A stretch of DNA of 28,335 bases from a virus. Taxonomy: Duplodnaviria > Heunggongvirae > Uroviricota > Caudoviricetes. The stretch lies in the IMG/VR virus record IMGVR_UViG_2737471849_000009; one strand, written 5' to 3'. Shown in pieces: positions 6,649 through 28,335 of the stretch; the stretch's first letter is position 1; every line of letters begins with the position of its first letter. The translations under genes and the position numbers were made by a program. The notes beneath the pieces are model-generated. The model ran no database searches. It was not told where the DNA came from and saw only the letters and a list, made by a program, of their open reading frames with translations.

Positions 6649-7509
6649 ATGATGATCAATAAACAAAAATTAGTCAACCCTGAAAACCTGCCAGTGATTG
6701 AGTGGCAGGGGGTACGCGTAGTTACCACTGAAACGCTGGCGGCGGGATATGGCACGGATGAAGCTAATATCCGTAAAAATCTGTCGCGCAATCTTGAGCG
6801 CTTTGAAGATGGGAAACATTATTTTCTTTTAACTGGTGATGCCCTGAAAGCATTTAAGGACAGAGTGACTATTGGTCACTCTGTTGGAAGAAATGCGCGT
6901 TCACTCACTCTCTGGACAGAACGCGGCGCTGCCCGCATGTCAAAAATCGTCGATACAGACGAGGCCTGGTCGTTCTTCGAAAAAATGGAGCAGGCGTATT
7001 TTCGTAAAGCAACGCCTTCTTCAAACACTATTCCAGACTTTGACGATCCGATCGCTGCTGCTGAAGCGTGGATTGAAGCCAAAAAATCCGAACGCCTTGC
7101 TCTCGGGTATGCAGAGCGTCAGGCTCGCTACATCAGCAAACTCGAAAGCCATCTCGCCGATGGCATCACTCCTGTGCAGTTCTGCAAACAACTCAACGGT
7201 GTAAACACTCGTCAGATTAATGCGTTCCTTGAAGAGCGTAACTGGCTGTATGACGACCGTCCGGAGGCTATGTATCCGCGCTGGCGTGTAAAAGCGTATG
7301 CACGTGACCAATACCTGACTGAGCGTTCTGGGCAGGTTGAGCAGGAAAACGGGGAAATACGCGAGATTTTCAAACCACTCCTGAAGAAAAAAGGTGCCGC
7401 CTGGTTATATCGCCATTATCTGAACGGTGAACTACCGATGAAGAAAACATGGGATGGGCTGTTTACCCATAACACTGAGCTCGCGAATCTTTTACAGGAG
7501 AACAAATAA
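6649..7509 (+). CDS. Antirepressor (ORF6N-type N-terminal domain plus Ant/KilA-C-like C-terminal domain)
   Basis: 286 aa; N-terminal domain (LPVIEWQGVRVVTTETLAAGYG ... LTLWTERGAARMSKIVDTDEAWSFFEKMEQAYF) is paralogous to ORF 13301..13789; longer C-terminal domain typical of phage antirepressors. Confidence 0.75.
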   Translation: MMINKQKLVNPENLPVIEWQGVRVVTTETLAAGYGTDEANIRKNLSRNLERFEDGKHYFLLTGDALKAFKDRVTIGHSVGRNARSLTLWTERGAARMSKIVDTDEAWSFFEKMEQAYFRKATPSSNTIPDFDDPIAAAEAWIEAKKSERLALGYAERQARYISKLESHLADGITPVQFCKQLNGVNTRQINAFLEERNWLYDDRPEAMYPRWRVKAYARDQYLTERSGQVEQENGEIREIFKPLLKKKGAAWLYRHYLNGELPMKKTWDGLFTHNTELANLLQENK

Positions 7510-15577: not shown

Positions 15578-15928
15578 ATGCCATCACAAATCCCTCGTGC
15601 ATGCCGTAAGCGAGGCTGTGCAGGCACAACGACGGACAGTTCGGGCTACTGCGATAAGCATCGCGGCGAAGGTTGGACACAACATCAACGCGGACTGAGC
15701 CGCCACCAGCGTGGCTATGGCTCGAAATGGGATGCCATACGTGCGCGCATACTGAAGCGTGATAATCATTTGTGTCAGAACTGCCTGCGCAATGGGAGAG
15801 CCGTTGAAGCCAGAACTGTGGACCACATCATTCCGAAAGCGCATGGCGGTACGGATGCAGACGGTAATCTGCAGAGCCTGTGCTGGCCATGCCACAAGGA
15901 GAAAACAGCGCGTGAACGCATCAACTGA
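15578..15928 (+). CDS. HNH endonuclease (terminase-associated type)
   Basis: 116 aa from ATG 15578 with GAGGAG Shine-Dalgarno; HNH motif DHIIPKAHGGTDADGNLQSLCWPCHKEKT; cysteine pairs CRKRGC and CQNC; directly upstream of terS. Confidence 0.8.
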   Translation: MPSQIPRACRKRGCAGTTTDSSGYCDKHRGEGWTQHQRGLSRHQRGYGSKWDAIRARILKRDNHLCQNCLRNGRAVEARTVDHIIPKAHGGTDADGNLQSLCWPCHKEKTARERIN

Positions 15929-16076
15929 TAATCGTTCTCATCTGTAAGGGAGGGGCGGGTCAAATCTCTGCAACCCTGGCTGCTCAGTACCGCCGCCTGA
16001 CCCTTCCTCACATCGCCGCAGGTTCGAAAACTTTTTTTTGGAAATGTGAACAAACGATTGATAGGTAAGACCGATT

Positions 16077-16559
16077 ATGTCAGGACCTCCGAAAACCCCG
16101 CCAGGCCTGCATTTGATACGAGGCAACCCCTCAAAGCGTCCCGTTAAAGACCACAAAAAAACCGCTAAAAAGGATGAAAAAGGTCTTCCTAAAATTCCGC
16201 AGCATTTAGGGGCTCAGGGGAAGTACTGGTTCAGGCGAATGGCGGAAGAGCTGAATGCGGAAGGGATCATTTCTCAGCTTGATGCACGTGCGCTCGAGTT
16301 GCTGGTGGAAGCCTACACCGAATATCGGCATCACTGCGAAACACTCGATGTTGAGGGGTATACTTACCGCACGGAAACGCAGAGCGGTGATGTACTGATT
16401 AAGGCGCACCCCGCGGCGGCAATGAAAGCGGATGCCTGGAAGCGGATCCGGGCAATGCTTGCAGAGTTTGGTATGTCACCGGCAAGCCGGGCTAAAGTAA
16501 ATATCGCCGGACCGGATGATGTTGATCCGCTGGCGGAGCTTTTAAAAGCGAGAGACTGA
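16077..16559 (+). CDS. Terminase small subunit (P27-family-like)
   Basis: 160 aa basic protein directly upstream of and overlapping the large terminase start (TGATGG); position and size. Confidence 0.7.
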   Translation: MSGPPKTPPGLHLIRGNPSKRPVKDHKKTAKKDEKGLPKIPQHLGAQGKYWFRRMAEELNAEGIISQLDARALELLVEAYTEYRHHCETLDVEGYTYRTETQSGDVLIKAHPAAAMKADAWKRIRAMLAEFGMSPASRAKVNIAGPDDVDPLAELLKARD

Positions 16560-18316
16560 TGGCAAAAGTGGCTGACGGGATCCGCTACGCCGAACGTGTT
16601 GTTGCAGGAGAAATTGTTGCTGGCGAATTTGTCCGCCTGGCCTGCCAGCGTTTTCTTGATGATCTGAAGTACGGCGAAGAGCGGGGGATTTATTTCAGTG
16701 AACCCCGTGCGCAGCACATCCTGAATTTCTACAAATTTGTGCCTCATGTAAAAGGGGCGCTGGCAGGCCAGCCCATTGAGTTGATGGACTGGCATGTATT
16801 TATCCTCATTAATATTTTTGGTTTTGTCATTCCGCTGGTCAATGAAGAGACCGGGGAAGTTGTCATGCGCAGCGATGGCAGCGGACGTCCGGTGATGGTG
16901 CGCCGGTTCCGGACGGCGTACAACGAAGTCGCCCGTAAAAACGCAAAATCAACTCTGTCATCGGGTATCGGCCTGTATATGACGGGGGCAGATGGTGAAG
17001 GCGGAGCTGAGGTGTATTCAGCCGCAACCACGCGTGACCAGGCCAGAATCGTGTTTGAAGACGCCAAAAATATGGTCAGAAAAGCCCGGTCGACACTCGG
17101 GCGGTTGTTTGATTTCAACAAGCTGGCGATTTACCAGGAGCAGAGCGCATCAAAATTTGAACCGCTTTCTTCGGATGCAAACAACCTGGATGGTCTGAAC
17201 ATTCACTGCGCCATTATTGATGAGCTGCATGCACATAAAACCCGTGACGTGTGGGACGTTCTGGAAACGGCAACCGGTGCTCGTCTGCAGTCCCTTTTAT
17301 TTGGTATCACCACGGCAGGGTTTAACAAGGAAGGGATTTGTTACGAGCAGCGTGATTACGCCATCAAGGTATTGCGTGGCTATAACAGCGACGTGGAGGG
17401 CGCGGTAAAAGACGACTCCTACTTTGCGATTATTTACACCCTCGATGAGGGAGATGATCCGTTTGATGAAACGGTCTGGCAGAAAGCGAATCCCGGCCTG
17501 GGCATCTGTAAACGCTGGGATGATCTGCGTCGCTTGGCGAAAAAAGCGAAAGAACAGGTCTCTGCACGGGTGAATTTTTTTACCAAACACATGAATGTGT
17601 GGGTAACAGCAGAGTCTGCCTGGATGGACATGATTAAGTGGGAGAAGTGCGAATACATTGCCCCACGACATGAGCTGAAAACGTATCCCATGTGGGTCGG
17701 CGTTGACCTTGCTCATAAGATTGATATCTGTGCGGCGGCAAAACTCTGGCGAACGGATAACGGGCATGTTCATGCCGATTTTAAATTCTGGCTTCCGGAA
17801 GGACGGCTGGAACGATGCTCGCGGCAGCAGGCAGAACTTTACCGGAAGTGGGCGGAGATGGATAAGCTGATTCTGACGGATGGTGATGTTATCGATCATG
17901 CTCAGATAAAAAGTGACTTACTGGAATGGATTGGTGGTGAAAACCTCAGGGAACTGGGATTTGACCCGTGGAGCGCGATGCAGTTCAGCCTGGCACTGGC
18001 TGAAGAAGGGATACCGCTGGTGGAGGTTCCGCAGACGGTTCGCAATCTGTCAGAGGCCATGAAGGAAACGGAATCACTGGTCTATGCCGGGCGTTTCCAT
18101 CACAGCAATCATCCGGTCATGAACTGGATGATGTCTAACGTTACGGTAAAACCGGACAAAAACGACAATATCTTCCCGAATAAATCCACGCTGGAAGCCA
18201 AAATCGACGGTCCTGTTGCGATGTTTACAGCAATGAGCCGGATGCTGGTCAATGGCGGTGAACCGGAGCCGGATCTGTCTGAGCATCTGGTCAGCGTTGG
18301 TATCCGCTCGCTTTAA
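16559..18316 (+). CDS. Terminase large subunit
   Basis: 585 aa; N-terminal ATPase region and C-terminal nuclease-like region with conserved acidic residues ([15 protein letters not shown]); downstream of HNH and TerS. Confidence 0.9.
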
Positions 18317-18327
18317 CCGAGGTCATT

Positions 18328-18510
18328 ATGTTTCTGATAATTCTCACGCCACTGGTGGGCGTGCTGGGGGCGCTTTTGCTGTCGTATGGCACATGGCTGA
18401 TTTATCCCCCGGCAGGTTTTGTTGTTGCCGGGGGGCTGTGCCTGTGCTGGTCGTGGCTGGTTGCGCGTTATCTCGATCGTGGTCACCGGGTCGCCTCCGG
18501 AGGTGAGTAA
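18328..18510 (+). CDS. Small membrane protein (60 aa, two predicted TM helices)
   Basis: GAGGT Shine-Dalgarno 6 nt upstream of the ATG; stop overlaps the next start (TAATG); occupies the position where a portal gene is expected. Confidence 0.3.
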
Positions 18511-18737
18511 TGTTTTTCCAGGGGCTTTTTCAACGTAAAAATAATACCCCCGTCACAACGCCCGGGATGCTTGCGGAAGAACTTGGGTTGTCATACGACA
18601 CCTATACCGGACTGCAACCTGTATTTTCAGAGGATGATCGTGAACAGGTGATTGCCGTGTATGGCCCGGTGCATGCGCGGCTTCTTCGGCAGTCTCTGGA
18701 ACTGATCAGTGATGCCGGCGAGGTTAAAAAAAAGTAG
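18510..18737 (+). CDS. Tail assembly chaperone G-like (short; possibly truncated)
   Basis: 75-aa ORF ending in the slippery run GTT AAA AAA AAG TAG, directly upstream of a T-domain ORF in the -1 frame. Confidence 0.5.
   Translation: MFFQGLFQRKNNTPVTTPGMLAEELGLSYDTYTGLQPVFSEDDREQVIAVYGPVHARLLRQSLELISDAGEVKKK
18728..18734 (+). other. Candidate -1 programmed ribosomal frameshift heptamer A_AAA_AAG
   Basis: X_XXY_YYZ heptamer in the G frame 1 codon before the stop; the -1 frame opens at 18728 and is continuous with ORF 18749..19039. Confidence 0.55.
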
Positions 18738-18748
18738 CGCTTCCGGGG

Positions 18749-19039
18749 ATGCGTTTTCTGATGATGCTGGCACTCAGGATGGGGCGCACATTGTCAGAGT
18801 TACGCCGGGAAATGTCCGCATCAGAAATCATGATGTGGGCAGAATTTGACAGGTTCAGCCCGCTGGGGGACGAACGGGCTGATATCCGGGCTGCCCAGAT
18901 TGTTTCAGCTGTTTACGGTGCGCAGGGTGTCAAAGTACCACTGAATGATGCGCTTCTTCAGTGGGAGCATGAATCAGAAGAAAATAAATGCGATGATCCA
19001 TTTATTGGATTAGAGGTTGCTCTAATGTCTTCACTATAA
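18749..19039 (+). CDS. Tail assembly chaperone T domain (expected as a G-T fusion via -1 frameshift)
   Basis: 96-aa ORF (MRFLMMLALRMGRTLSELRREMSASEIMMWAEFDRFSPLGDERADIRAAQIVSAVYGAQGVKVPL) resembling recalled minor tail protein T sequences; frame is -1 relative to G. Confidence 0.6.
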   Translation: MRFLMMLALRMGRTLSELRREMSASEIMMWAEFDRFSPLGDERADIRAAQIVSAVYGAQGVKVPLNDALLQWEHESEENKCDDPFIGLEVALMSSL

Positions 19040-19097
19040 GATAATTTTTTAATCGTTTTGAAATTGAATGCTTTACTCAAAGTCAGGAGGATTAATC

Positions 19098-19439
19098 ATG
19101 AGAAAATCAGTGGTGACATTAGCTTGTTTGTTTTTTATTAGTGCATGTAAGCCATCAGATAATTATGTTATTTCTTTAGGGGAAAACTTAGTTAAAGATA
19201 AGCTTATTGATCCTGATAGTGCAAAATTTAATTCTTTTTTTCATAAGTCAGGTGATTTATATGGTTATGTTTGTGGTGATGTTAATTCAAAAAACACGTT
19301 TGGTGGATATACAGGGAAAAAGCCATATTTTGTTTATTTGGAAGTTGTGGATGGAAAAGTTAAGAGTCATGGGACTGTAACAATTGTTAATGATCATGAT
19401 CCAAGCAGTATGGAAAAATATAAGTTGTTTTGCCAATAA
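19098..19439 (+). CDS. AT-rich moron lipoprotein (113 aa)
   Basis: ATG 19098 with AGGAGG Shine-Dalgarno; signal peptide with lipobox ISAC; markedly AT-rich codons compared with flanking tail genes; own terminator downstream. Confidence 0.6.
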   Translation: MRKSVVTLACLFFISACKPSDNYVISLGENLVKDKLIDPDSAKFNSFFHKSGDLYGYVCGDVNSKNTFGGYTGKKPYFVYLEVVDGKVKSHGTVTIVNDHDPSSMEKYKLFCQ

Positions 19440-19449
19440 TTATCATCTT

Positions 19450-19475
19450 AAAAAACCGCAGAAGCGGTTTTTTTA
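19450..19475 (+). terminator. Intrinsic terminator after the moron lipoprotein gene (bidirectional shape)
   Basis: A5-CCGC-agaa-GCGG-T7 hairpin 11 nt after the lipoprotein stop and 14 nt before the tape measure start. Confidence 0.55.
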
Positions 19476-19488
19476 TGGGGTAAAGTAA

Positions 19489-22400
19489 ATGGCGACATTA
19501 CGTGAGCTGATTATTAAAATCTCGGCAAATTCCCGGTCATTCCAGTCAGAGATCTCCCGGGCTTCGCGTATGGGGCAGGATTACTACCGTACCATGCAGA
19601 ACGGAGGCCGGCAGTCCGCTGCTGCATCCCGTGAAATGCGGCGTGCACTGGCAGAAGTGACGGATCAGATAAATACAGCTAAATCTTCGGCACTGAATAT
19701 GGCGGGGGCATTTGCCGGGGCTTTTGCTACCGGTCATCTTATTTCTCTCGCCGATGAGTGGAATTCAGTAAATGCCCGTCTGAAGCAGGCCTCACAGTCC
19801 ACTGATGATTTTCAGGTATCACAACGTGAATTAATGGCAATCAGCCAGAGAACGGGAACGGCGTTTTCTGATAACGCCAGCCTTTTTGCCCGCTCTGCAG
19901 CTTCCATGCGGGAGTATGGCTACAGTTCTGAGGAGGTACTGAAAGTCACCGAGGCTATCTCCACGGGCCTGAAATTATCCGGTGCCAGTGCAGCAGAAGC
20001 CAGTTCGGTGATCACGCAGTTCAGTCAGGCACTGGCGCAGGGAGTGCTGCGCGGTGAAGAATTTAACTCTGTGAATGAGAACGGCGATCGTGTTATTCGT
20101 GCGCTGGCTGCGGGAATGGGTGTTGCCCGTAAGGATCTGAAGGCCATGGCGGATAACGGAAAGTTGACCGCCGATAAGGTTGTTCCTGCACTGATTAGTC
20201 AGCTTGGGGCGTTGCGTGATGAATATGCAGCAATGCCTGATACGGTTTCATCCTCTGCAACCAAAGTTGAAAACGCCTTTATGGCCTGGGTTGGTGGTGC
20301 GAACGAAGCAAGCGGAGTGACGAAGACGCTCTCCGGTGTGCTGAATGGTATTGCAGGCAATATTGACACTGTGGCAACCGCTGCCGGTGCTCTGGTTGCC
20401 GTCGGGGTAGCCCGATATTTTGGCAATATGGCATCTTCTGCTGGATCTGCAACTGCCGGATTAATTACTGCAGCCAGAAACGAAGTAGCTCTTGCGGAAG
20501 CGCAGCTCCGGGGGACGCAGATAGCAACCGCCAGGGCGCGTGCGGCGGTTTATCGTGCGCAACAGGCGGTCGCGGCTACCCGTGGTACTGAAAGACAGGC
20601 AGCCGCAGAAGCGAAACTGGCTGCTGCCCAGGCATCACTTACCCGTAATATTGCGGCCAGAACAGCAGCACAGACAACGCTGAATACTGTCACGTCAGTG
20701 GGGAGTCGTTTATTAAGTGGTGCGCTGGGGCTGGTTGGTGGTGTGCCGGGACTCGTCATGCTGGGGGCGACGGCCTGGTACACGATGTATCAGAATCAGG
20801 AGCAGGCCAGAGAATCTGCACGCCAGTATGCCGCAACAATCGACGAAATTCGCCAGAAAACGTCGGCAATGTCGCTTCCTGAAGCGTCAGATAATGAGGA
20901 AAAGACGCGGCAGGCACTGGAGGAACAAAATCGCCTGATTAACGAACAGGAAGGAAAAATTCGCGGACTGAAAAATCAAATTGCTGATTATCAACGTTGG
21001 CTTGATGAAAGTTCGCAGAGTGGTTCTGGTGCTGAAATCATCCTTAAAGGGCTTGCAGAAGCAACAAATCAACTGGCAGTTGAACAGTCCCGTCTCACAC
21101 AAATGCAGGGCAAAGCGCAATCCATTCAGGATGTGCTTGCCGGGCTGGAGGAGCGACGAGTGGCGTTGATCCGTCAACAGGCAGCGGAACAAAACAAAGC
21201 GTATCAGTCCCTGTTGATCATGAATGGGAAGCATACCGAGTTTAATCGCCTTCTCGGGCTTGGTAATGAATTACTTCAGCAGCGACAGGGGCTGGTGAAT
21301 GTACCGTTACGGCTACCACAGGCAACTCTGGATGATAAACAGCAGACCGCACTGAATAACAGCAAGCGCGAACTGGCTCTGTCCCGCCTTAAGGGGGAAG
21401 CGCGTGAGCGTGCCCGACTGGGCTATGCTGCGGATGATCTCGGCTTTGTGGGAGAGGCGTATCGGACAGCCAGACAGAATTATATCAATAACTCACTGGA
21501 TGCCTGGCGAAATAACCAGGCAAATAAACCCAAAGCGCATAAAAAGACCGAAGCGGAAAAAACAGAAGATATTTATAAACGGCTGATTAAACAGCAAAAA
21601 GAACAGATAGCACTGGCAGGGCAGAATACTGAACTGGCTAAGATGAAATATCAGGTCAGTCAGGGCGAATTATCAACCCTGTCAGAAGCGCAGAAAAAAA
21701 CGCTTTTGCAGAATGCAGCACTCATCGACCAGAAAAAGATTCGTGAGCAGCTTGCCGCGTATGAAAGCAGTCTGGCGGACAGTAATGCCAGTGCCCGGGC
21801 ATCTGACGACGCGCAGTTGCTGGGATATGGTGAAGGCTCACGGATGCGTGAACGACTCCAGGAAATGTGGAGTATCCGGCATGAGTTTGAGCAGAAAAAT
21901 AACGAGCTGCTGAGACAGTATCAGGCCGGAGAAATTGAAGAAGCCCTGTGGAAACAGGAGAAAGAACTGAATAAAAAATATCTGGAAGAGCGTCTCAGCG
22001 ATCAGCAGGATTATTATGCAAAGGCCGATGCTTTACGTAATAACTGGAATGCCGGACTCCAGGAGGGACTGACCAACTGGGCAGACAGTGCCACCGATTA
22101 TGCTTCACAGGCGGCAGATGCTGTTGTTTCCACGATGGACGGGCTGGTATCAAATATTTCCGATGCACTGGCCGGGAATGTTGTGGAGTGGAGGAACTGG
22201 GGGAGTTCAGTTCTCCGGGAAGTTTCAAAAATTCTGATGAATGCGGCCATTGTTAACGGACTGAAGTCACTCTCCGGTGCCGGAGGGTGGCTTGGTACGG
22301 TCGGCGGATGGATTTCGGGGGCGGTGGCAAACGCAAAAGGTGGTGTTTACACATCGGCAAATCTGAGTGCTTACAGTAACACTATTGTGGATACACCGAC

Positions 22401-22689
22401 GTATTTTGCTTTTGCGAAAGGTGCCGGGCTGATGGGCGAGGCCGGGCCTGAAGCTATCATGCCACTGACACGGGCAGCGGACGGCTCTCTTGGGGTCAGA
22501 GCCATTGGCAATGTGAATGGTGGCGGTGGATTTGTTTATTCTCCCGTGTATCACATTAGCATTCAGAATCAAGGGAGCAATGGCGAGATAGATACGCGCT
22601 CAGCCAGGGGACTGGTGGATCTGATCGACAGCAGGGTTGTGTCAATTATGCAGTCATCGCGTCGGGATGGAGGATTATACAGTGCCTGA
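19489..22689 (+). CDS. H: Tail tape measure protein
   Basis: 1066 aa, Ala/Gln-rich coiled-coil protein; C-terminal segments (NWADSATDYASQAADAV ... RRDGGLYSA) parallel lambda gpH; followed by M, L, K, I, J. Confidence 0.9.
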   Translation: MATLRELIIKISANSRSFQSEISRASRMGQDYYRTMQNGGRQSAAASREMRRALAEVTDQINTAKSSALNMAGAFAGAFATGHLISLADEWNSVNARLKQASQSTDDFQVSQRELMAISQRTGTAFSDNASLFARSAASMREYGYSSEEVLKVTEAISTGLKLSGASAAEASSVITQFSQALAQGVLRGEEFNSVNENGDRVIRALAAGMGVARKDLKAMADNGKLTADKVVPALISQLGALRDEYAAMPDTVSSSATKVENAFMAWVGGANEASGVTKTLSGVLNGIAGNIDTVATAAGALVAVGVARYFGNMASSAGSATAGLITAARNEVALAEAQLRGTQIATARARAAVYRAQQAVAATRGTERQAAAEAKLAAAQASLTRNIAARTAAQTTLNTVTSVGSRLLSGALGLVGGVPGLVMLGATAWYTMYQNQEQARESARQYAATIDEIRQKTSAMSLPEASDNEEKTRQALEEQNRLINEQEGKIRGLKNQIADYQRWLDESSQSGSGAEIILKGLAEATNQLAVEQSRLTQMQGKAQSIQDVLAGLEERRVALIRQQAAEQNKAYQSLLIMNGKHTEFNRLLGLGNELLQQRQGLVNVPLRLPQATLDDKQQTALNNSKRELALSRLKGEARERARLGYAADDLGFVGEAYRTARQNYINNSLDAWRNNQANKPKAHKKTEAEKTEDIYKRLIKQQKEQIALAGQNTELAKMKYQVSQGELSTLSEAQKKTLLQNAALIDQKKIREQLAAYESSLADSNASARASDDAQLLGYGEGSRMRERLQEMWSIRHEFEQKNNELLRQYQAGEIEEALWKQEKELNKKYLEERLSDQQDYYAKADALRNNWNAGLQEGLTNWADSATDYASQAADAVVSTMDGLVSNISDALAGNVVEWRNWGSSVLREVSKILMNAAIVNGLKSLSGAGGWLGTVGGWISGAVANAKGGVYTSANLSAYSNTIVDTPTYFAFAKGAGLMGEAGPEAIMPLTRAADGSLGVRAIGNVNGGGGFVYSPVYHISIQNQGSNGEIDTRSARGLVDLIDSRVVSIMQSSRRDGGLYSA

Positions 22690-23023
22690 GCCTGAAGTTT
22701 TTAACTGGATCCCCCGTGAGGGGATGGAGACGACACGAAAGCCATCAGTTATTACGGTAAAGTTTGGTGACGGATATGAACAGCGACGGGCTGGTGGGCT
22801 GAATGCGGATCTGAAAACGTTTAAACCGGTATTTCGTGTCACAGATGAATACTCCCGTGCCGCGCTGGACAGTTTTTTATCCCGTCATGCCGGGATTCGT
22901 GCTTTTTTGTGGCGCCCGCCAAAACACAACAGGACTGTCCGGGTTGTCTGCAGGGAGTGGAGCATTTCGGATAATGCCATGTATACCGATTTTAACTGTA
23001 CCTTTGAAGAGGTCACTCACTGA
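22667..23023 (+). CDS. M: Minor tail protein M
   Basis: 118 aa from ATG 22667 (overlaps the end of H); KFGDGYEQRRAGGLNADLKTFKPVF matches lambda gpM RFGDGYSQRAPAGLNANLKTY. Confidence 0.8.
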   Translation: MEDYTVPEPEVFNWIPREGMETTRKPSVITVKFGDGYEQRRAGGLNADLKTFKPVFRVTDEYSRAALDSFLSRHAGIRAFLWRPPKHNRTVRVVCREWSISDNAMYTDFNCTFEEVTH

Positions 23024-23721
23024 TGCAGGATATACAGCAGGAAACACTCAATGAGTGCACTAAAACGGAGCAATCCGCGCTGGTCGTGCTCTGGGAAATT
23101 GATCTGACAGAGGTCGGCGGAGATCGTTACTTTTTCTGCAATGAGCAGAACGAAAAAGGTGAACCAGTCACCTGGCAGGGGCGGCAGTATCAGGCCTATC
23201 CCATTCAGGGAAGTGGATTTGAGATGAACGGCAAAGGAGCCAGTGCAAGGCCAACGCTGAAAGTCTCTAATCTGCACGGCATGGTCACCGGGATGGCGGA
23301 AGACCTGCAGAGTCTGGTCGGCGGAACGGTGGTCCGGCGTAAGGTTTACGCCCGTTTTCTGGATGCGGTGAACTTCGTCAACGGAAACAGTGACGCCGAT
23401 CCGGAGCAGGAGGTGATCAGCCGCTGGCGCATCGAGCAGTGCAGCGAACTGAGCGCGGTGAGTGCCTCCTTTGTACTGTCCACGCCGACGGAAACGGATG
23501 GCGCTGTTTTTCCGGGGCGTATCATGCTGGCCAACACCTGCACCTGGACCTATCGCGGTGATGAGTGCGGTTATCACGGTCCGGCAGTCGCGGATGAATA
23601 TGACCAGCTGACGTCCGATACCACGAAAGATAAATGCAGCAAATGCCTGAGTGGCTGTAAGTTTCGCAATAACGTCGGCAACTTTGGCGGCTTCCTTTCC
23701 ATTAACAAACTTTCGCAGTAA
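23023..23721 (+). CDS. L: Minor tail protein L
   Basis: 232 aa, near-identical by recall to lambda gpL over its whole length (MQDIQQETLNECTKTEQSALVVLWEIDLTEVGG ... CSKCLSGCKFRNNVGNFGGFLSINKLSQ). Confidence 0.9.
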   Translation: MQDIQQETLNECTKTEQSALVVLWEIDLTEVGGDRYFFCNEQNEKGEPVTWQGRQYQAYPIQGSGFEMNGKGASARPTLKVSNLHGMVTGMAEDLQSLVGGTVVRRKVYARFLDAVNFVNGNSDADPEQEVISRWRIEQCSELSAVSASFVLSTPTETDGAVFPGRIMLANTCTWTYRGDECGYHGPAVADEYDQLTSDTTKDKCSKCLSGCKFRNNVGNFGGFLSINKLSQ

Positions 23722-23725
23722 ACCC

Positions 23726-24469
23726 ATGACAGAAACAGAATCAGCGATTCTGGCGCACGCCCGGCGATGTGCGCCAGCGGAGTCGTGCGGCTTCGTGGTG
23801 AGAGCGCCGGAGGGGGAAAGATATTTTCCCTGCATGAATATTTCCGGTGAGCCGGAGGGTTATTTCCGGATGTCGCCGGAAGACTGGCTGCAGGCAGAAA
23901 TGCAGGGTGAGATTGTGGCGCTGGTCCACAGCCACCCCGGTGGTCTGCCCTGGCTGAGTGAGGCCGACCGGCGGCTGCAGGTGCAGAGTGATTTGCCGTG
24001 GTGGCTGGTCTGCCTGGGCGTGATTCACAAGTTCCGCTGTGTGCCGTATCTCACCGGGCGGCGCTTTGAGCACGGAGTGACGGACTGTTACACGCTGTTC
24101 CGGGACGCTTACCATCTGGCGGGAATTGAGATGCCGGATTTTCACCGCGAGGATGACTGGTGGCGTCACGGTCAGAATCTCTATCTTGACAATATGGAGG
24201 CAACGGGTTTTTACCGTGTCGCACTGACAGAGGCGCAGCCGGGCGACGTGCTGCTGTGCAGCTTTGGTTCATCGGTGCCGAATCATGCTGCCATTTACTG
24301 CGGCGACGGCGAGCTGCTGCACCATATTCCTGAACAACTGAGTAAACGAGAGAGGTACACCGACAAATGGCAGCGACGCACACACTCCCTCTGGCGTCAC
24401 CGGGCATGGCACGCATCTGCCTTTACGGGGATTTGCAACGATTTGGCCGCCGCATTGACCTTCGTGTGA
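23726..24469 (+). CDS. K: Tail assembly protein K (JAB/MPN plus NlpC/P60-like)
   Basis: 247 aa from ATG 23726; MTETESAILAHARRCAPAESCGFVV ... HSHPGG (JAMM-like) ... NHAAIYCGDGELLHHI closely parallels lambda gpK. Confidence 0.85.
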   Translation: MTETESAILAHARRCAPAESCGFVVRAPEGERYFPCMNISGEPEGYFRMSPEDWLQAEMQGEIVALVHSHPGGLPWLSEADRRLQVQSDLPWWLVCLGVIHKFRCVPYLTGRRFEHGVTDCYTLFRDAYHLAGIEMPDFHREDDWWRHGQNLYLDNMEATGFYRVALTEAQPGDVLLCSFGSSVPNHAAIYCGDGELLHHIPEQLSKRERYTDKWQRRTHSLWRHRAWHASAFTGICNDLAAALTFV

Positions 24470-25014
24470 AAACGGGGGCTGAAGCCATCCGGGCGCTGGC
24501 CACACAGCTCCCGGCGTTTCGTCAGAAACTGAGCGATGGCTGGTATCAGATACGGATTGCCGGGCGTGATACAGGTGAAAACGAATTATCAGCCCGTCTG
24601 AATGAGCCGCTGGAAAATGGTGCCGTGATCCACATCGTACCGCGTCTGGCGGGTGCTAAAAGTGGCGGTATTTTTCAGGCAGTGCTGGGGGCGGCGCTGA
24701 TTGCGGTTGCATGGTGGAACCCTGTGGGCTGGCTGGGGGCCGCGGCTGTATCGGGTATGTATGCGGCAGGGGCCAGTATGATCCTGGGCGGTGTGGCGCA
24801 GATGCTGGCCCCCAAACCCAGAACCCCCCGAACACAGACAACGGATAACGGTAAGCAGAACACCTATTTCTCCTCACTGGATAACATGGTTGCCCAGGGC
24901 AATGTTCTGCCTGTTCTGTACGGTGAAATGCGCGTGGGGTCACGCGTGGTTTCTCAGGAGATCAGCACGGCAGACGAAGGGGACGGTGGTCAGGTTGTGG
25001 TGATTGGTCGCTGA
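24367..25014 (+). CDS. I: Tail assembly protein I
   Basis: 215 aa; N- and C-terminal regions (MAATHTLPLASPGMARICLYGDLQRFGRRIDLRVKTGAEAIRALATQLPAFRQKLSDGWYQ ... KQNTYFSSLDNMVAQGNVLPVLYGEMRVGSRVVSQEISTADEGDGGQVVVIGR) match lambda gpI. Confidence 0.85.
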   Translation: MAATHTLPLASPGMARICLYGDLQRFGRRIDLRVKTGAEAIRALATQLPAFRQKLSDGWYQIRIAGRDTGENELSARLNEPLENGAVIHIVPRLAGAKSGGIFQAVLGAALIAVAWWNPVGWLGAAAVSGMYAAGASMILGGVAQMLAPKPRTPRTQTTDNGKQNTYFSSLDNMVAQGNVLPVLYGEMRVGSRVVSQEISTADEGDGGQVVVIGR

Positions 25015-25033
25015 TGCAAAATGTTTTATGTGA

Positions 25034-25060
25034 AACCGCCTCAGGGCGGTTTTGTCGTTT
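25034..25060 (+). terminator. Hairpin with short T-tract between I and J (possible attenuator)
   Basis: AACCGCC-tcag-GGCGGTT followed by TTTTG; sits between the I stop and the J start. Confidence 0.35.
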
Positions 25061-25074
25061 ATGGAGCGTGAGGA

Positions 25075-28000
25075 ATGGGTAAAGGCAGCAGTAAGGGGCA
25101 TACCCCGCGCGAAGCGAAGGACAACCTGAAGTCCACGCAGCTGCTGAGTGTGATCGATGCCATCAGCGAAGGGCCGGTTGAAGGTCCGGTGGATGGATTA
25201 AAAAGCGTGCTGCTGAACAGTACACCTGTGCTGGACAGTGAGGGGAATACCAATATCTCCGGCGTCACGGTGGTGTTCCGGGCCGGTGAGCAGGAGCAGA
25301 CACCGCCGGAGGGGTTTGAATCCTCCGGCTCCGAGACGGTGCTGGGTACGGAAGTGAAATATGACACGCCGATCACCCGCACCATTACGTCTGCAAACAT
25401 CGACCGTCTGCGCTTTACCTTCGGTGTACAGGCACTGGTGGAAACCACCTCAAAGGGTGACAGGAATCCGTCGGAAGTCCGCCTGCTGGTTCAGATACAA
25501 CGTAACGGTGGCTGGGTGACGGAAAAAGACATCACCATTAAGGGCAAAACCACCTCGCAGTATCTGGCCTCGGTGGTGGTGGGTAACCTGCCGCCGCGCC
25601 CGTTCAACATCCGGATGCGCAGGATGACGCCGGACAGCACCACAGACCAGCTGCAGAACAAAACGCTCTGGTCGTCATACACTGAAATCATCGATGTGAA
25701 ACAGTGCTACCCGAACACGGCACTGGTTGGCGTACAGGTGGACTCGGAACAGTTCGGCAGTCAGCAGGTGAGCCGTAATTATCATCTGCGCGGGCGCATT
25801 CTGCAGGTGCCGTCGAACTATAACCCGCAGACGCGGCAATACAGCGGTATCTGGGACGGAACGTTTAAACCGGCATACAGCAACAACATGGCCTGGTGTC
25901 TGTGGGATATGCTGACCCATCCGCGCTACGGCATGGGGAAACGTCTTGGTGCGGCGGATGTGGATAAATGGGCGCTGTATGTCATCGGCCAGTACTGCGA
26001 CCAGTCAGTGCCGGACGGCTTTGGTGGCACGGAGCCGCGCATCACCTGTAATGCGTACCTGACCACACAGCGCAAGGCGTGGGATGTGCTCAGTGATTTC
26101 TGCTCGGCGATGCGCTGTATGCCGGTATGGAACGGGCAGACGCTGACGTTCGTGCAGGACCGACCATCGGATAAGGTGTGGACCTATAACCGCAGTAATG
26201 TGGTTATGCCGGATGATGGTGCGCCGTTCCGCTACAGCTTCAGCGCCCTGAAGGACCGCCATAATGCCGTTGAGGTGAACTGGATTGACCCGGATAACGG
26301 CTGGGAGACAGCGACAGAGCTTGTGGAGGACACGCAGGCCATTGCCCGTTACGGTCGTAATGTTACGAAGATGGATGCCTTTGGCTGTACCAGCCGGGGG
26401 CAGGCACACCGCGCCGGGCTGTGGCTGATTAAAACAGAACTGCTGGAAACGCAGACCGTGGACTTCAGCGTGGGGGCCGAAGGGCTTCGCCATGTGCCGG
26501 GCGATGTCATTGAAATCTGCGATGATGACTATGCCGGTATCAGCACCGGTGGTCGCGTGCTGGCGGTGAACAGCCAGACCCGGACGCTGACGCTCGACCG
26601 TGAAATCACGCTGCCATCCTCCGGTACCACGCTGATAAGCCTGGTTGACGGAAGTGGTAATCCGGTCAGCGTGGAGGTTCAGTCCGTCACCGACGGACTT
26701 AAGGTGAAAGTGAACCGGGTTCCTGACGGCGTTGCAGAATACAGTGTGTGGGGGCTGAAGCTGCCGACGCTGCGCCAGCGCCTGTTCCGCTGCGTGAGTA
26801 TCCGTGAGAACGACGACGGCACGTATGCCATCACCGCCGTGCAGCATGTACCGGAAAAAGAGGCCATCGTGGATAACGGGGCGCACTTTGACGGCGACCA
26901 GAGCGGCACGGTGAATGGTGTCACGCCGCCAGCGGTGCAGCACCTGACCGCCGAAGTCACCGCAGACAGCGGGGAATATCAGGTGCTGGCGCGCTGGGAG
27001 ACGCCGAAGGTGGTGAAGGGGGTGAGCTTCCTGCTTCGCCTGACCGTGGCAGCGGATGACGGCAGTGAGCGGCTGGTCAGCACGGCCCGGACGACGGAAA
27101 CCACATACCGCTTCAGGCAGCTGACGCTGGGGCGTTACAGGCTGACAGTCCGGGCGGTAAATGCGTGGGGACAGCAGGGAGACCCGGCGTCGGTATCGTT
27201 CCGGATTGCCGCACCGGCAGCACCGTCGAGGATTGAGCTGACGCCGGGCTATTTTCAGATAACCGCCACGCCGCATCTTGCCGTTTATGACCCGACGGTA
27301 CAGTTTGAGTTCTGGTTCTCGGAAAAACGGATTGCGGATATCAGGCAGGTTGAAACCACAGCCCGCTATCTTGGCACGGCGCTGTACTGGATAGCTGCCA
27401 GTATCAATATCAGGCCGGGCCATGATTATTATTTTTACGTTCGCAGTGTGAACACCGTTGGCAAATCGGCATTCGTGGAGGCTGTCGGTCGGGCGAGCGA
27501 TGATGCGGAAGGTTACCTGGATTTTTTCAAAGGCAAGATAACCGAATCTCATCTCGGCAAGGAGTTGCTGGAAAAAGTCGACCTGACGGAGGATAACGCC
27601 AGCAGACTGGAGGAGTTTTCGAAAGAGTGGAAGGACGCCAACGATAAGTGGAATGCCATGTGGGCTGTCAAAATTGAGCAGACCAAAGACGGCAAACATT
27701 ATGTCGCGGGACTTGGCCTCAGCATGGAGGATACAGAGGAAGGCAAACTGAGCCAGTTTCTGGTTGCCGCTAACCGTATCGCGTTTATTGACCCGGCAAA
27801 CGGGAATGAAACGCCGATGTTTGTGGCGCAGGGCAATCAGATATTCATGAACGACGTGTTCCTGAAGCGCCTGACGGCCCCCACCATTACCAGCGGCGGC
27901 AATCCCCCGGCCTTTTCCCTGACACCGGACGGAAAGCTGACGGCGAAAAATGCGGATATCAGTGGCAGTGTGAATGCGAACGCCGGGACGCTCAATAATG

Positions 28001-28335
28001 TCACGATTAATGAGAACTGTCAGATTCTGGGAAAACTGTCAGCTATTCAGATTGAAGGCGATATTGTTAAAACGGTGGGTAAGGCTTTCCCCCGTGACTC
28101 CCGGGCACCGGAGCGGTGGCCATCAGGGACCATTACCGTCAGGGTTTATGACGATCAGCCTTTTGACCGGCAAATTGTCATTCCGGCGGTGGCATTCAGC
28201 GGTGCCAGACATGAGAGAGAGCATAATGACATTTATTCATCATGCCGTCTGATAGTGCGGAAAAACGGTGCTGAAATTTATAACCGTACCGCGCTGGATA
28301 ATACGCTGATTTATACCGGTGTGATTGATATGCCA
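25075..28335 (+). CDS. J: Host specificity/central tail fibre protein J (partial; continues beyond window end)
   Basis: Open frame from ATG 25075 to the window edge; N-terminus [54 protein letters not shown] and long internal stretches match lambda gpJ; long minus-strand ORFs here are antisense shadows. Confidence 0.9.

Follow-up and report, generated by a model that had tools for sequence, protein, structure and literature searches.

The window, i.e. the whole stretch of 28,335 nucleotides that was analysed, carries a packaging module in the order HNH, terS, terL, with all three genes on the + strand and the HNH gene directly upstream of terS/terL:

15578-15928, + strand: HNH endonuclease gene (PF01844, E 2e-15; PHROG 144)
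16077-16559, + strand: gene for the small terminase subunit TerS, P27 family (PF05119, Terminase_4, E 2e-25; PHROG 83)
16559-18316, + strand: gene for the large terminase subunit TerL, HK97 type (PF03354, ATPase, and PF20441, nuclease)

The HNH protein has an apparent zinc ribbon at the N-terminus (CxxxxC...CxxH, motifs read by eye from the translation) and the HNH domain at the C-terminus. It matched the GVE2 HNH endonuclease over its full length (PDB 5h0m, E 1.7e-15; PMC5304195), and in BLASTP it showed 88% amino acid identity to L34 of phiP27 and 73% to the HNH protein of mEp235. Judged from its sequence, the protein is a packaging-associated nickase. Unlike gp74 of HK97, which has no N-terminal zinc ribbon (PMC3592412), the HNH protein of the window appears to carry one.

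TerS was 74% identical to its counterpart in mEp235, but only 19-24% identical to those of phiP27 (19%) and SfV. No similarity to HK97 gp1 was detectable by BLASTP, Pfam or a search against solved structures, the last of which returned no meaningful match for TerS. The TerS proteins of phiP27 and mEp235 likewise belong to PF05119, and HK97 gp1 has no Pfam match at all. TerL was 100% identical to that of phage vB_EcoM-606R7, and 87%, 38%, 36% and 29% identical to those of mEp235, phiP27, SfV and HK97 (gp2, E 6e-40), respectively. It also matched PDB 6z6d (E 1e-35), and the pair PF03354 and PF20441 is common to the TerL proteins of HK97, phiP27 and mEp235.

The terminase of lambda, whose cos has 12-nt 5' ends, belongs to other families (Nu1, PF07471; A, PF05876/PF20454), and the proteins of the window matched neither set. 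BLASTP of lambda Nu1 and A against the window proteins gave nothing significant, the only hits being HNH with A and TerL with Nu1 (E 0.6-1.6). The Pfam families and BLASTP thus agree with the initial annotation, which had described the packaging type as HNH-assisted and P27/HK97-like rather than lambda Nu1/A. Together with the predicted cutting site upstream of terS, these genes are, by family and homology, an ordinary HK97/P27-type set, and HK97 has the same order of HNH (gp74), cos, terS (gp1) and terL (gp2).

The predicted cos site

The intergenic region between the HNH gene and terS is the predicted location of cos, supported by homology. Three elements were distinguished:

15948-15962, + strand: G-rich box (G-box) GGGAGGGGCGGGTCA, the putative conserved left-hand cos element
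15991-16000, + strand: predicted cohesive-end sequence (cosN) CGCCGCCTGA, a 10-nt 3' overhang
16009-16039, + strand: block CACATCGCCGCAGGTTCGAAAAC followed by T8, a candidate cosB-like TerS recognition site

The assignment comes from aligning the region, column for column, with HK97, phiP27 and SfI, in which cos has been mapped or annotated. The 10-mer CGCCGCCTGA lay opposite the final 10 nt of the HK97 record (CGCCGCCAAA), the 10-nt cos-site annotated in phiP27 (CGCCCGCCCC, in the same columns) and the 10-nt gap, i.e. the cohesive end, of SfI (TGCCCGCCCC). G-box, 28-nt spacer and 10-mer were in exact register with all three (10-mer CGCCGCC... for the HK97 genome end); in HK97, an A/T tract also lies downstream of the cut. 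The G-box was always found exactly 28 nt upstream of the 10-mer, in HK97, phiP27, SfV, mEp235 and phages of Klebsiella and Morganella, and presumably serves as a cos element. phiP27, an Stx2e phage and the namesake of the P27 family TerS, shares about 84% DNA identity with the window from the lysis region through the G-box to the 10-mer, but its 10-mer differs.

The dinucleotides AC|CG at the left border of the 10-mer were unchanged in 79 of 79 close relatives. Phage HNH nickases cut CG|GT (PMC3592412), and AC|CG at this border corresponds to that nick site. From these positions, nicks are predicted at 15990/15991 in the bottom strand and at 16000/16001 in the top strand.

On the terminase side, ATCGCCGCAGGTTCGAAAAC was invariant in 78 close relatives. 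In mEp235, Klebsiella LV-2017, 733R5 and Morganella IME1369_02 the flanks of the block at 16009-16039 diverged, but the block itself had hardly changed. The right cos half, CACATCGCCGCAGGTT.GAAAAC and the T-run, is shared with mEp235 (Hendrixvirinae, Nochtlivirus) and with the induced E. coli phages vB_EcoM-606R7 and phi467. The block and T8 are likely to be the binding site of the small terminase subunit. HK97 TerS binds +15 to +29, including an essential A-tract (PMC11331095); the tract in the window, at +32 to +39, is 8 nt more distant from the cut.

HK97 has 10-nt 3' overhangs, and its HNH protein gp74 stimulates cos cleavage (PMC9410871). By analogy, TerS of the window would bind the downstream block and A-tract, and TerL would cleave after 16000 in the top strand, assisted by the HNH protein, which would probably nick at CG|GT in the bottom strand, opposite 15990/15991. 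Both cuts together would leave a 10-nt 3' overhang. A search for mapped termini within the same terminase subclade found none. The mEp235 record (JQ182731) begins artificially at the terS ATG and is therefore uninformative for termini, the cos region is internal in the 606R7 and phi467 records, and the Fraca and Providencia 117lys records begin near the site with starts that look arbitrary or chimeric.

The initial annotation had proposed a cos or packaging recognition site here from a GC-rich imperfect inverted repeat and a T8-9 run, to be checked against HK97-like cos regions and to be given up if the region lacked conservation in related phages. The location is supported by the register described above and by conservation of the cos region in relatives from four genera, the terminase-side block being kept across phages of Escherichia, Klebsiella and Morganella. 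The T-run is present as T8 at 16032-16039. The inverted repeat exists in the DNA fold (G-rich at about 15943-15959, C-rich at 15991-16008), but its folding energy was within chance (z = -1.3; 20 of 200 shuffles folded equally well), and the hairpin was therefore dropped as evidence. The repeat finder missed the GC-rich pair and listed only an AT-rich one, at 15928-15943 and 16063-16078.

A GC-rich repeat followed by a T-run is also the textbook pattern of a rho-independent terminator, here of the late/lysis transcript, but this reading is very unlikely. More than 20 nt separate the end of the stem from the T-run, the energy of the stem does not exceed that of shuffles, and the elements align with mapped cos sites. 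A terminator scan of 15300-16700 found nothing at the repeat and T-run, its only match being at 15402-15427. Moreover, late transcription in phages of this kind has to continue across cos into terS. A tRNA scan was negative, and Rfam matches fell outside the HNH/TerS/TerL region.

Tail genes and mosaic boundaries

The tail genes downstream of terL fall into two parts:

18749-23022, + strand: non-lambda part with the T frame, a low-GC lipoprotein-like moron, the tape measure gene (19489-22689) and the gene for an M-like protein
23003-28335, + strand: lambda-like distal tail genes L, K, I and J, with J running past the end of the window

The description of H-M-L-K-I-J as close to lambda in the initial annotation held for the distal genes, with amino acid identities to lambda of 93% (L), 92% (K), 79% (I) and 92% (J). 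It failed for M (40%) and for H (26%, over the C-terminal third). Remnants of G/T gave no match to lambda, and Pfam matches in the first part were to PF06223, PF20155/PF06120/PF09718 and PF05939. In relation to a full lambda-type set (Z-U-V-G-T-H-M-L-K-I-J), equivalents of Z, U and V were absent. At the nucleotide level, 23003-28020 of the window was 92.6% identical to lambda 13409-18450, and the final ~315 nt of the window, inside J, lay outside the aligned stretch. The alignment thus sets a true mosaic boundary at 23003, at the M/L boundary and the start of lambda homology.

By the same kind of comparison, another true mosaic joint lies at or beside the cos 10-mer (15991-16000). DNA homology to phiP27 ends at about 15997, inside the 10-mer. 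The HNH gene and left cos half are P27-like, whereas TerS, TerL and the right cos half are mEp235-like. Fourteen relatives carried a 96% P27-like HNH gene and a P27-like left flank together with terS/terL 94-97% like those of the window, and among relatives the G-box type went together with the HNH gene type. These data suggest that HNH plus left cos half and terminase plus right cos half reassort at or beside the cut site.

It may be, and is put forward only tentatively, that the HK97/P27-type cos consists of two halves, each inherited together with its own protein (left with HNH, right with TerS/TerL), with exchange at, or a few bases from, the 10-nt cohesive end. At the left half (G-box at a fixed 28 nt, and AC|CG) the HNH protein would then dock and nick, and the right half would be the conserved block and A-tract, moving with TerS/TerL. 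Exchange near the cohesive end might be due to recombinogenic cut ends. If true, this arrangement would give a sequence-level answer to the question of which nuclease cuts which strand in HNH-assisted packaging.

Deletion joints and the state of the prophage

Between terL and the tail genes, and upstream of the HNH gene, the following were found:

15237/15238, no strand: deletion joint 1, with 984 bp of the lysis cassette lost and a 2-bp microhomology
18328-18510, + strand: gene for a 60-aa membrane protein, normally between terL and portal (PHROG 502)
18510-18737, + strand: chimeric 75-aa ORF, portal N-terminus joined in frame to the C-terminus of the tail assembly chaperone
18604-18611, no strand: deletion joint 2, the 8-bp microhomology ATACCGGA remaining after a 5,527-bp loss

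The 60-aa gene occupies the same place in phiP27 (L37) and in the intact relative described below. The chimeric ORF, which holds the deletion joint, consists of portal residues 1-34 followed by the final 41 residues of the chaperone. Only its residues 33-75 matched PF06222, at profile positions 82-124 of 124, i.e. the C-terminal third.

The intact relative is a prophage of E. coli E21845/O/A (NZ_CP076272.1, adjoining mlrA; coordinates given as L001), which was 99.4-100% identical to the window at the nucleotide level over all shared segments, with an identical integrase end and gene order. It differs in possessing the 5,527-bp and 984-bp segments, and in a different 0.8-kb Rha-family segment in the early region. 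In blastn, window 15237-18611 corresponded to L001 21422-24796 (100%) and window 18604-28335 to L001 30316-40047 (99.93%). The interval absent at joint 2 is annotated in the relative as portal through tail assembly chaperone; lost are the portal, prohead protease, major capsid protein, head-tail connectors, tail completion protein, major tail protein and most of the tail assembly chaperone. At joint 1, window 8609-15238 corresponded to L001 13810-20439 and window from 15237 to L001 from 21422, with loss of the holin gene 3' end, a second holin, the M15 endolysin and the 5' part of a small ORF.

The comparison identifies the junction between terL and the tail genes as the scar of a 5,527-bp deletion and not a mosaic joint; the terminase genes adjoin tail genes because this deletion took the head and tail-shaft genes. 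The mosaic joint that the initial annotation had placed between a packaging module and a lambda-type tail module, within 15578-18316, is thus withdrawn: the scar, where the near-identical prophage has head and tail-shaft genes, lies outside that interval. HK97 has portal and capsid genes after terL, mEp235 has portal, protease and major head subunit genes, and 606R7 has a head-tail joining protein gene. Since the portal, HK97-type protease and capsid genes that follow terL are deleted in the window, its module is a truncated member of the HNH-assisted HK97/P27 type. Both deletions would be the result of recent illegitimate recombination, the larger one, at the 8-bp microhomology, producing the in-frame portal::chaperone chimera.

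The data are best explained, with a probability of roughly 0.85, by a lambdoid prophage of the HK97/P27 packaging type (Hendrixvirinae-like) in which HNH-cos-TerS-TerL is intact, two recent deletions have occurred, and mosaic boundaries lie at the cos 10-mer and at M/L. Because the deletions removed the head and tail-shaft genes as well as endolysin and holin, the prophage should be defective; from its gene content it should be unable to make heads or tail tubes or to lyse the cell.

A deletion derivative of this kind could in principle live as a satellite-like element, packaged in the heads of a co-resident HK97/P27-type helper prophage. Cos, HNH, TerS, TerL and the replication and lysogeny genes are retained, the intact relative has cos and all three packaging ORFs at 100% identity, and vB_EcoM-606R7, with its identical TerL, was deposited as a phage genome. 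Of 5,426 complete E. coli genomes, 1,625 contain related prophages (median of two matching places in each), and the joint occurs in at least three assemblies. Sequence identity, however, shows only that the deletion is recent. The joints were not found in the 5,426 complete E. coli genomes, 80 IMG/VR relatives or GTDB representative genomes, so that the deletion allele is confined to one lineage among those searched; its absence from ~5,500 other genomes or viral contigs means that it has not spread. The breakpoints look accidental, lying mid-ORF at microhomologies, and known hallmarks of satellites (capsid-size redirection, helper-sensing derepression) are absent. The full lambdoid early region and most tail genes are kept, which separates the element from PICIs and capsid-forming PICIs. 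A satellite role is therefore considered improbable.

Still less probable is an intact prophage in which the deletions arose as errors of assembly. The window does come from a draft assembly, on a contig ending in J, but joint 2 recurred at 100% identity in an NCBI assembly (GCA_022568615.1) and in two independent Logan assemblies from different sequencing runs. Both joints lie within long contigs that are otherwise collinear, and repeats of 8 or 2 bp are probably far too short to mislead a k-mer assembler.

The least credible reading is a natural modular recombinant with the HNH/TerS/TerL cassette joined straight to a lambda-type tail module: the tape-measure gene does lie within 1.2 kb of TerL and L-K-I-J are 79-93% identical to lambda, but the junction ORF is a chimera of portal and chaperone, a prophage with 99.9-100% identity to the window carries head and tail-shaft genes, 5.5 kb in all, exactly there, flanked by the 8-bp direct repeat of which one copy is left in the window, the joint-side tape measure, M and T are not lambda-like (lambda H, M, G and T being distant or unrelated, as is its Nu1/A terminase), and assembly of a phage would be impossible without portal, capsid and tail tube.

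Recognition of the apparent packaging-to-tail mosaic joint as a deletion scar in a decaying prophage is mainly of corrective value: by annotation pipelines and readers alike, gene adjacency in a prophage should not be read as evidence of module architecture. The findings on this prophage are ordinary biology. Of practical use is the cos site, predicted to the base for a very common group of E. coli prophages, which may help terminus-aware phage assembly.

The classical defective lambdoid prophages of E. coli (e14, Rac, DLP12 and Qin) have decayed by internal deletions, with partial morphogenesis and lysis modules remaining. Compared with these, the prophage of the window is at a very early stage of decay, with two deletions and the remaining genes full-length, matching the annotated sizes in the intact relative where compared.

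The packaging genes and the predicted cos site

The initial annotation named three packaging genes at 15578-18316, and the domain and PHROG matches agreed with it:

15578-15928, HNH endonuclease (PF01844, E 2e-15; PHROG 144)
16077-16559, small terminase (TerS), P27 family (PF05119, E 2e-25; PHROG 83)
16559-18316, large terminase (TerL; TerL_ATPase PF03354 and TerL_nuclease PF20441)

The terminase had been described as not of the lambda type, and a grouping of TerL with lambda-type terminases was looked for by Pfam and BLASTP and was absent. BLASTP found no similarity between lambda gpA and the window TerL, and lambda Nu1 (PF07471) and gpA (PF05876/PF20454) belong to Pfam families other than those of the window. 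The PF03354 and PF20441 pair is common to the TerL proteins of HK97, phiP27 and mEp235. The sole large-terminase entry retrieved from PDB by sequence search with the window TerL was 6z6d (E 1e-35), which we take to be HK97 gp2; in BLASTP the identity to gp2 was 29% (E 6e-40). TerL identity was 87% for mEp235, 38% for phiP27 and 36% for SfV. The deposited phage vB_EcoM-606R7 has a TerL with 100% protein identity, and more than 2,600 phage records contain this family.

The region between HNH and terS, where a cos (packaging cut) site had been suggested, is predicted to be one. The phiP27 record has an annotated 10-nt "cos-site" between HNH and terS, and in the same place the cohesive end of SfI was determined as 10 nt, TGCCCGCCCC, with near-identity to SfV reported (PMC3636060). 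HK97 has 10-nt 3' overhangs (PMC9410871), and the terminal sequence of its record is CGCCGCCAAA. Eight phages, aligned by anchoring on a common G-rich box (G-box), all showed one architecture with identical spacing, which places the 10-mer of the window in register with the HK97, phiP27 and SfI ends.

Elements of the cos region; each 10-mer lies 28 nt after the G-box
G-box, window 15948-15962: GGG.GGGG.GG.TCA
Window 10-mer, 15991-16000: CGCCGCCTGA
HK97: CGCCGCCAAA
phiP27: CGCCCGCCCC
SfV/SfI: TGCCCGCCCC
mEp235: CGCCGCCTAG
Klebsiella LV-2017: CGCCGCCTAA
733R5: CGCCGCCCAA
Morganella IME1369_02: CGCCGCCTTA

ATCGCCGCAGGTTCGAAAAC was invariant among 78 close relatives. The T-run, rightly singled out as a meaningful element, comes after the 10-mer and is part of a block, CACATCGCCGCAGGTT(C/A)GAAAAC followed by T6-8 (16009-16039), that hardly varies among the Escherichia, Klebsiella and Morganella phages sharing the TerS subclade of the window. 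In the same alignment the 28-nt spacer and the sequence beyond the T-run diverged freely. The small terminase of HK97 binds +15 to +29 downstream of the cut, where an A-tract is essential (PMC11331095); the numbering of that study (T16, C:G at 21, A:T at 24-29) fits the first base of the HK97 record as +1. By analogy, the block and T8 of the window (+9 to +39) are the predicted TerS site. The GC-rich inverted repeat noted here is real, pairing the G-box with the C-rich 10-mer region, but weak (z = -1.3), being no more stable than shuffled sequences. A reading of the repeat and T-run as a terminator was rejected by a terminator scan.

In Escherichia phage CharmingMan (L098, about 260-290) the cos core is inverted, TTAGGCGGCGGTCC, inside a small palindrome. 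The record of phage Fraca (L099, 1-135) opens with 131 nt of internal terL, joined 1 nt past the predicted cut, as if the assembler had bridged the physical genome end.

Proposed nicking and a mosaic joint at cos

The GVE2 HNH endonuclease (PDB 5h0m; PMC5304195) matched the whole length of the window HNH at E 1.7e-15, and an N-terminal zinc-ribbon motif was read by eye in the translation of the window gene. Such enzymes, including that of GVE2, are encoded beside cos and the terminase genes and nick CG|GT (AC|CG on the other strand) (PMC3592412). Seven of the eight phages have AC|CG at the left edge of their 10-mer (SfV has AC|TG), as do 79/79 close-relative sequences. For a 10-nt 3' overhang to arise, the bottom-strand nick must sit at this left edge, within 5'-CG|GT-3'. 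In a simple model, HNH would nick the bottom strand opposite 15990/15991, and TerL would nick the top strand after 16000, a division of strands that is one of two options raised by the HK97 authors (PMC11331095).

phiP27 and the window share about 84% DNA identity across the lysis region, HNH, G-box and spacer, and this homology ends at about 15997, within the 10-mer. Protein identities agree, HNH being 88% identical to phiP27, whereas TerS and TerL are only 19% and 38% identical. Among 80 relatives with terS and terL 94-98% identical to those of the window, 14 carried a 96% P27-like HNH, and their left flank and the left half of their 10-mer were P27-like too (CGGGAC CGCCCGCCAA); one had the P27-like HNH and flank, yet the 10-mer of the window. 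HNH with the left half of cos and the terminase with the right half therefore reassort, the crossovers lying at the cut site or no more than a few bases from it. The interval 15578-18316 contains no other genuine mosaic joint. Cos may be bipartite, with its left half tied to HNH and its right half to the terminase.

Two deletions relative to an intact prophage

A mosaic joint between the packaging and tail modules had also been proposed. When 14800-19600 was searched by megablast against 5,426 complete E. coli genomes, relatives were found in 1,625, and every top match stopped at 18611. The best match, a prophage adjoining mlrA in E. coli E21845/O/A (NZ_CP076272.1; locus L001), matches the window collinearly at 99.4-100% identity, except for a 0.8-kb substituted early segment and two clean gaps. 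L001 21422-24796 corresponds to window 15237-18611 (100%) and L001 30316-40047 to 18604-28335 (99.93%). The two segments overlap by 8 bp, ATACCGGA, present in two copies 5,527 bp apart in the intact prophage and as a single copy in the window. The proposed joint is therefore a deletion scar, the intact prophage having 5,527 bp more there.

Genes annotated in the E21845/O/A prophage within the missing interval
Portal, minus its first 34 codons
HK97-family prohead protease
Major capsid protein
Head-tail connector
Head closure protein
gp10-family protein
Tail completion protein
Immunoglobulin-domain major tail protein
Tail assembly chaperone, first two-thirds

ORF 18510-18737 is therefore a portal::chaperone chimera; of the 124 positions in the chaperone profile PF06222, its residues 33-75 matched 82-124 alone. 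It still ends in the G-T slippery run A AAA AAG (18726-18737), and a fused G'-T product could still be made from the chimera by frameshifting there.

Through the second gap (984 bp, with 2-bp microhomology at 15237/15238), one holin gene is cut at its 3' end, a second holin and an M15 endolysin are gone, and a small ORF lacks its start. In the lysis cassette (14936-15535) a truncated or fused holin ORF of 110 aa remains.

Both joints were absent from 80 IMG/VR relatives with TerS 97-99% identical, from the 5,426 complete E. coli genomes and from GTDB species representatives. Contigs of two Logan assemblies (SRR17587033 and SRR22865517) code for the chimeric 75-aa protein, and contig JAKFZE010000002.1 (NCBI GCA_022568615.1) for the truncated holin; all three are 100% identical to the window across 5-20 kb. 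Repeats of 8 and 2 bp would be too short to mislead an assembler, and the joints are therefore read as real deletions that arose spontaneously by illegitimate recombination in a single strain lineage, recent because their flanks are 100% identical. With portal, protease, capsid, connectors, tail tube and endolysin missing, the prophage should be incapable of particle formation or lysis.

Tail genes and other features

The tail genes H-M-L-K-I-J had been called close to lambda. In BLASTP this held for L (93% amino acid identity), K (92%), I (79%) and J (92%), but not for M (40%) or H (26%, C-terminal third only). The chaperone/T remnants had no lambda match, nor had any head or shaft protein encoded by the intact relative. 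Since nucleotide homology to lambda (92.6%) starts sharply at 23003 (lambda 13409), in the last 20 nt of M, the real lambda mosaic boundary is the M/L junction, 4.7 kb past 18316. The initial annotation was thus confirmed in part and its interpretation supported in part: the terminase type and the suggested cos site hold up, while the module joint and the lambda-likeness of H and M do not. None of the parts is of a new kind: the packaging module is an HNH-assisted cos module of the HK97/P27 type and the tail tip is lambda-like, in a prophage in early decay.

Between the T frame and the tape-measure gene, ORF 19068-19439 (GC 0.33; PHROG 2320, unknown function) has a lipoprotein-type signal apparent by eye, and is also found in the intact relative. 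An AraC-family (HTH_18) regulator gene of lower GC (about 0.43) at 13953-14756, between the Q antiterminator region and the holin, is probably a moron. In the early region, 8394-8608 (about 215 bp) stands in place of 827 bp (L001 12983-13809) inside a Rha-family regulator gene, a mosaic difference from the E21845/O/A prophage.

Two copies of an isrK sRNA and C4 antisense RNA pair were detected at Rfam gathering scores (7790-7978 and 13055-13250), the second with a c4-a1b1 target element at the same threshold. The first copy has an ORF6N gene (6649-7509) on its upstream side, and the second is just upstream of an ORF6N-domain ORF (13301-13789), an arrangement resembling P1/P7-style antisense control.
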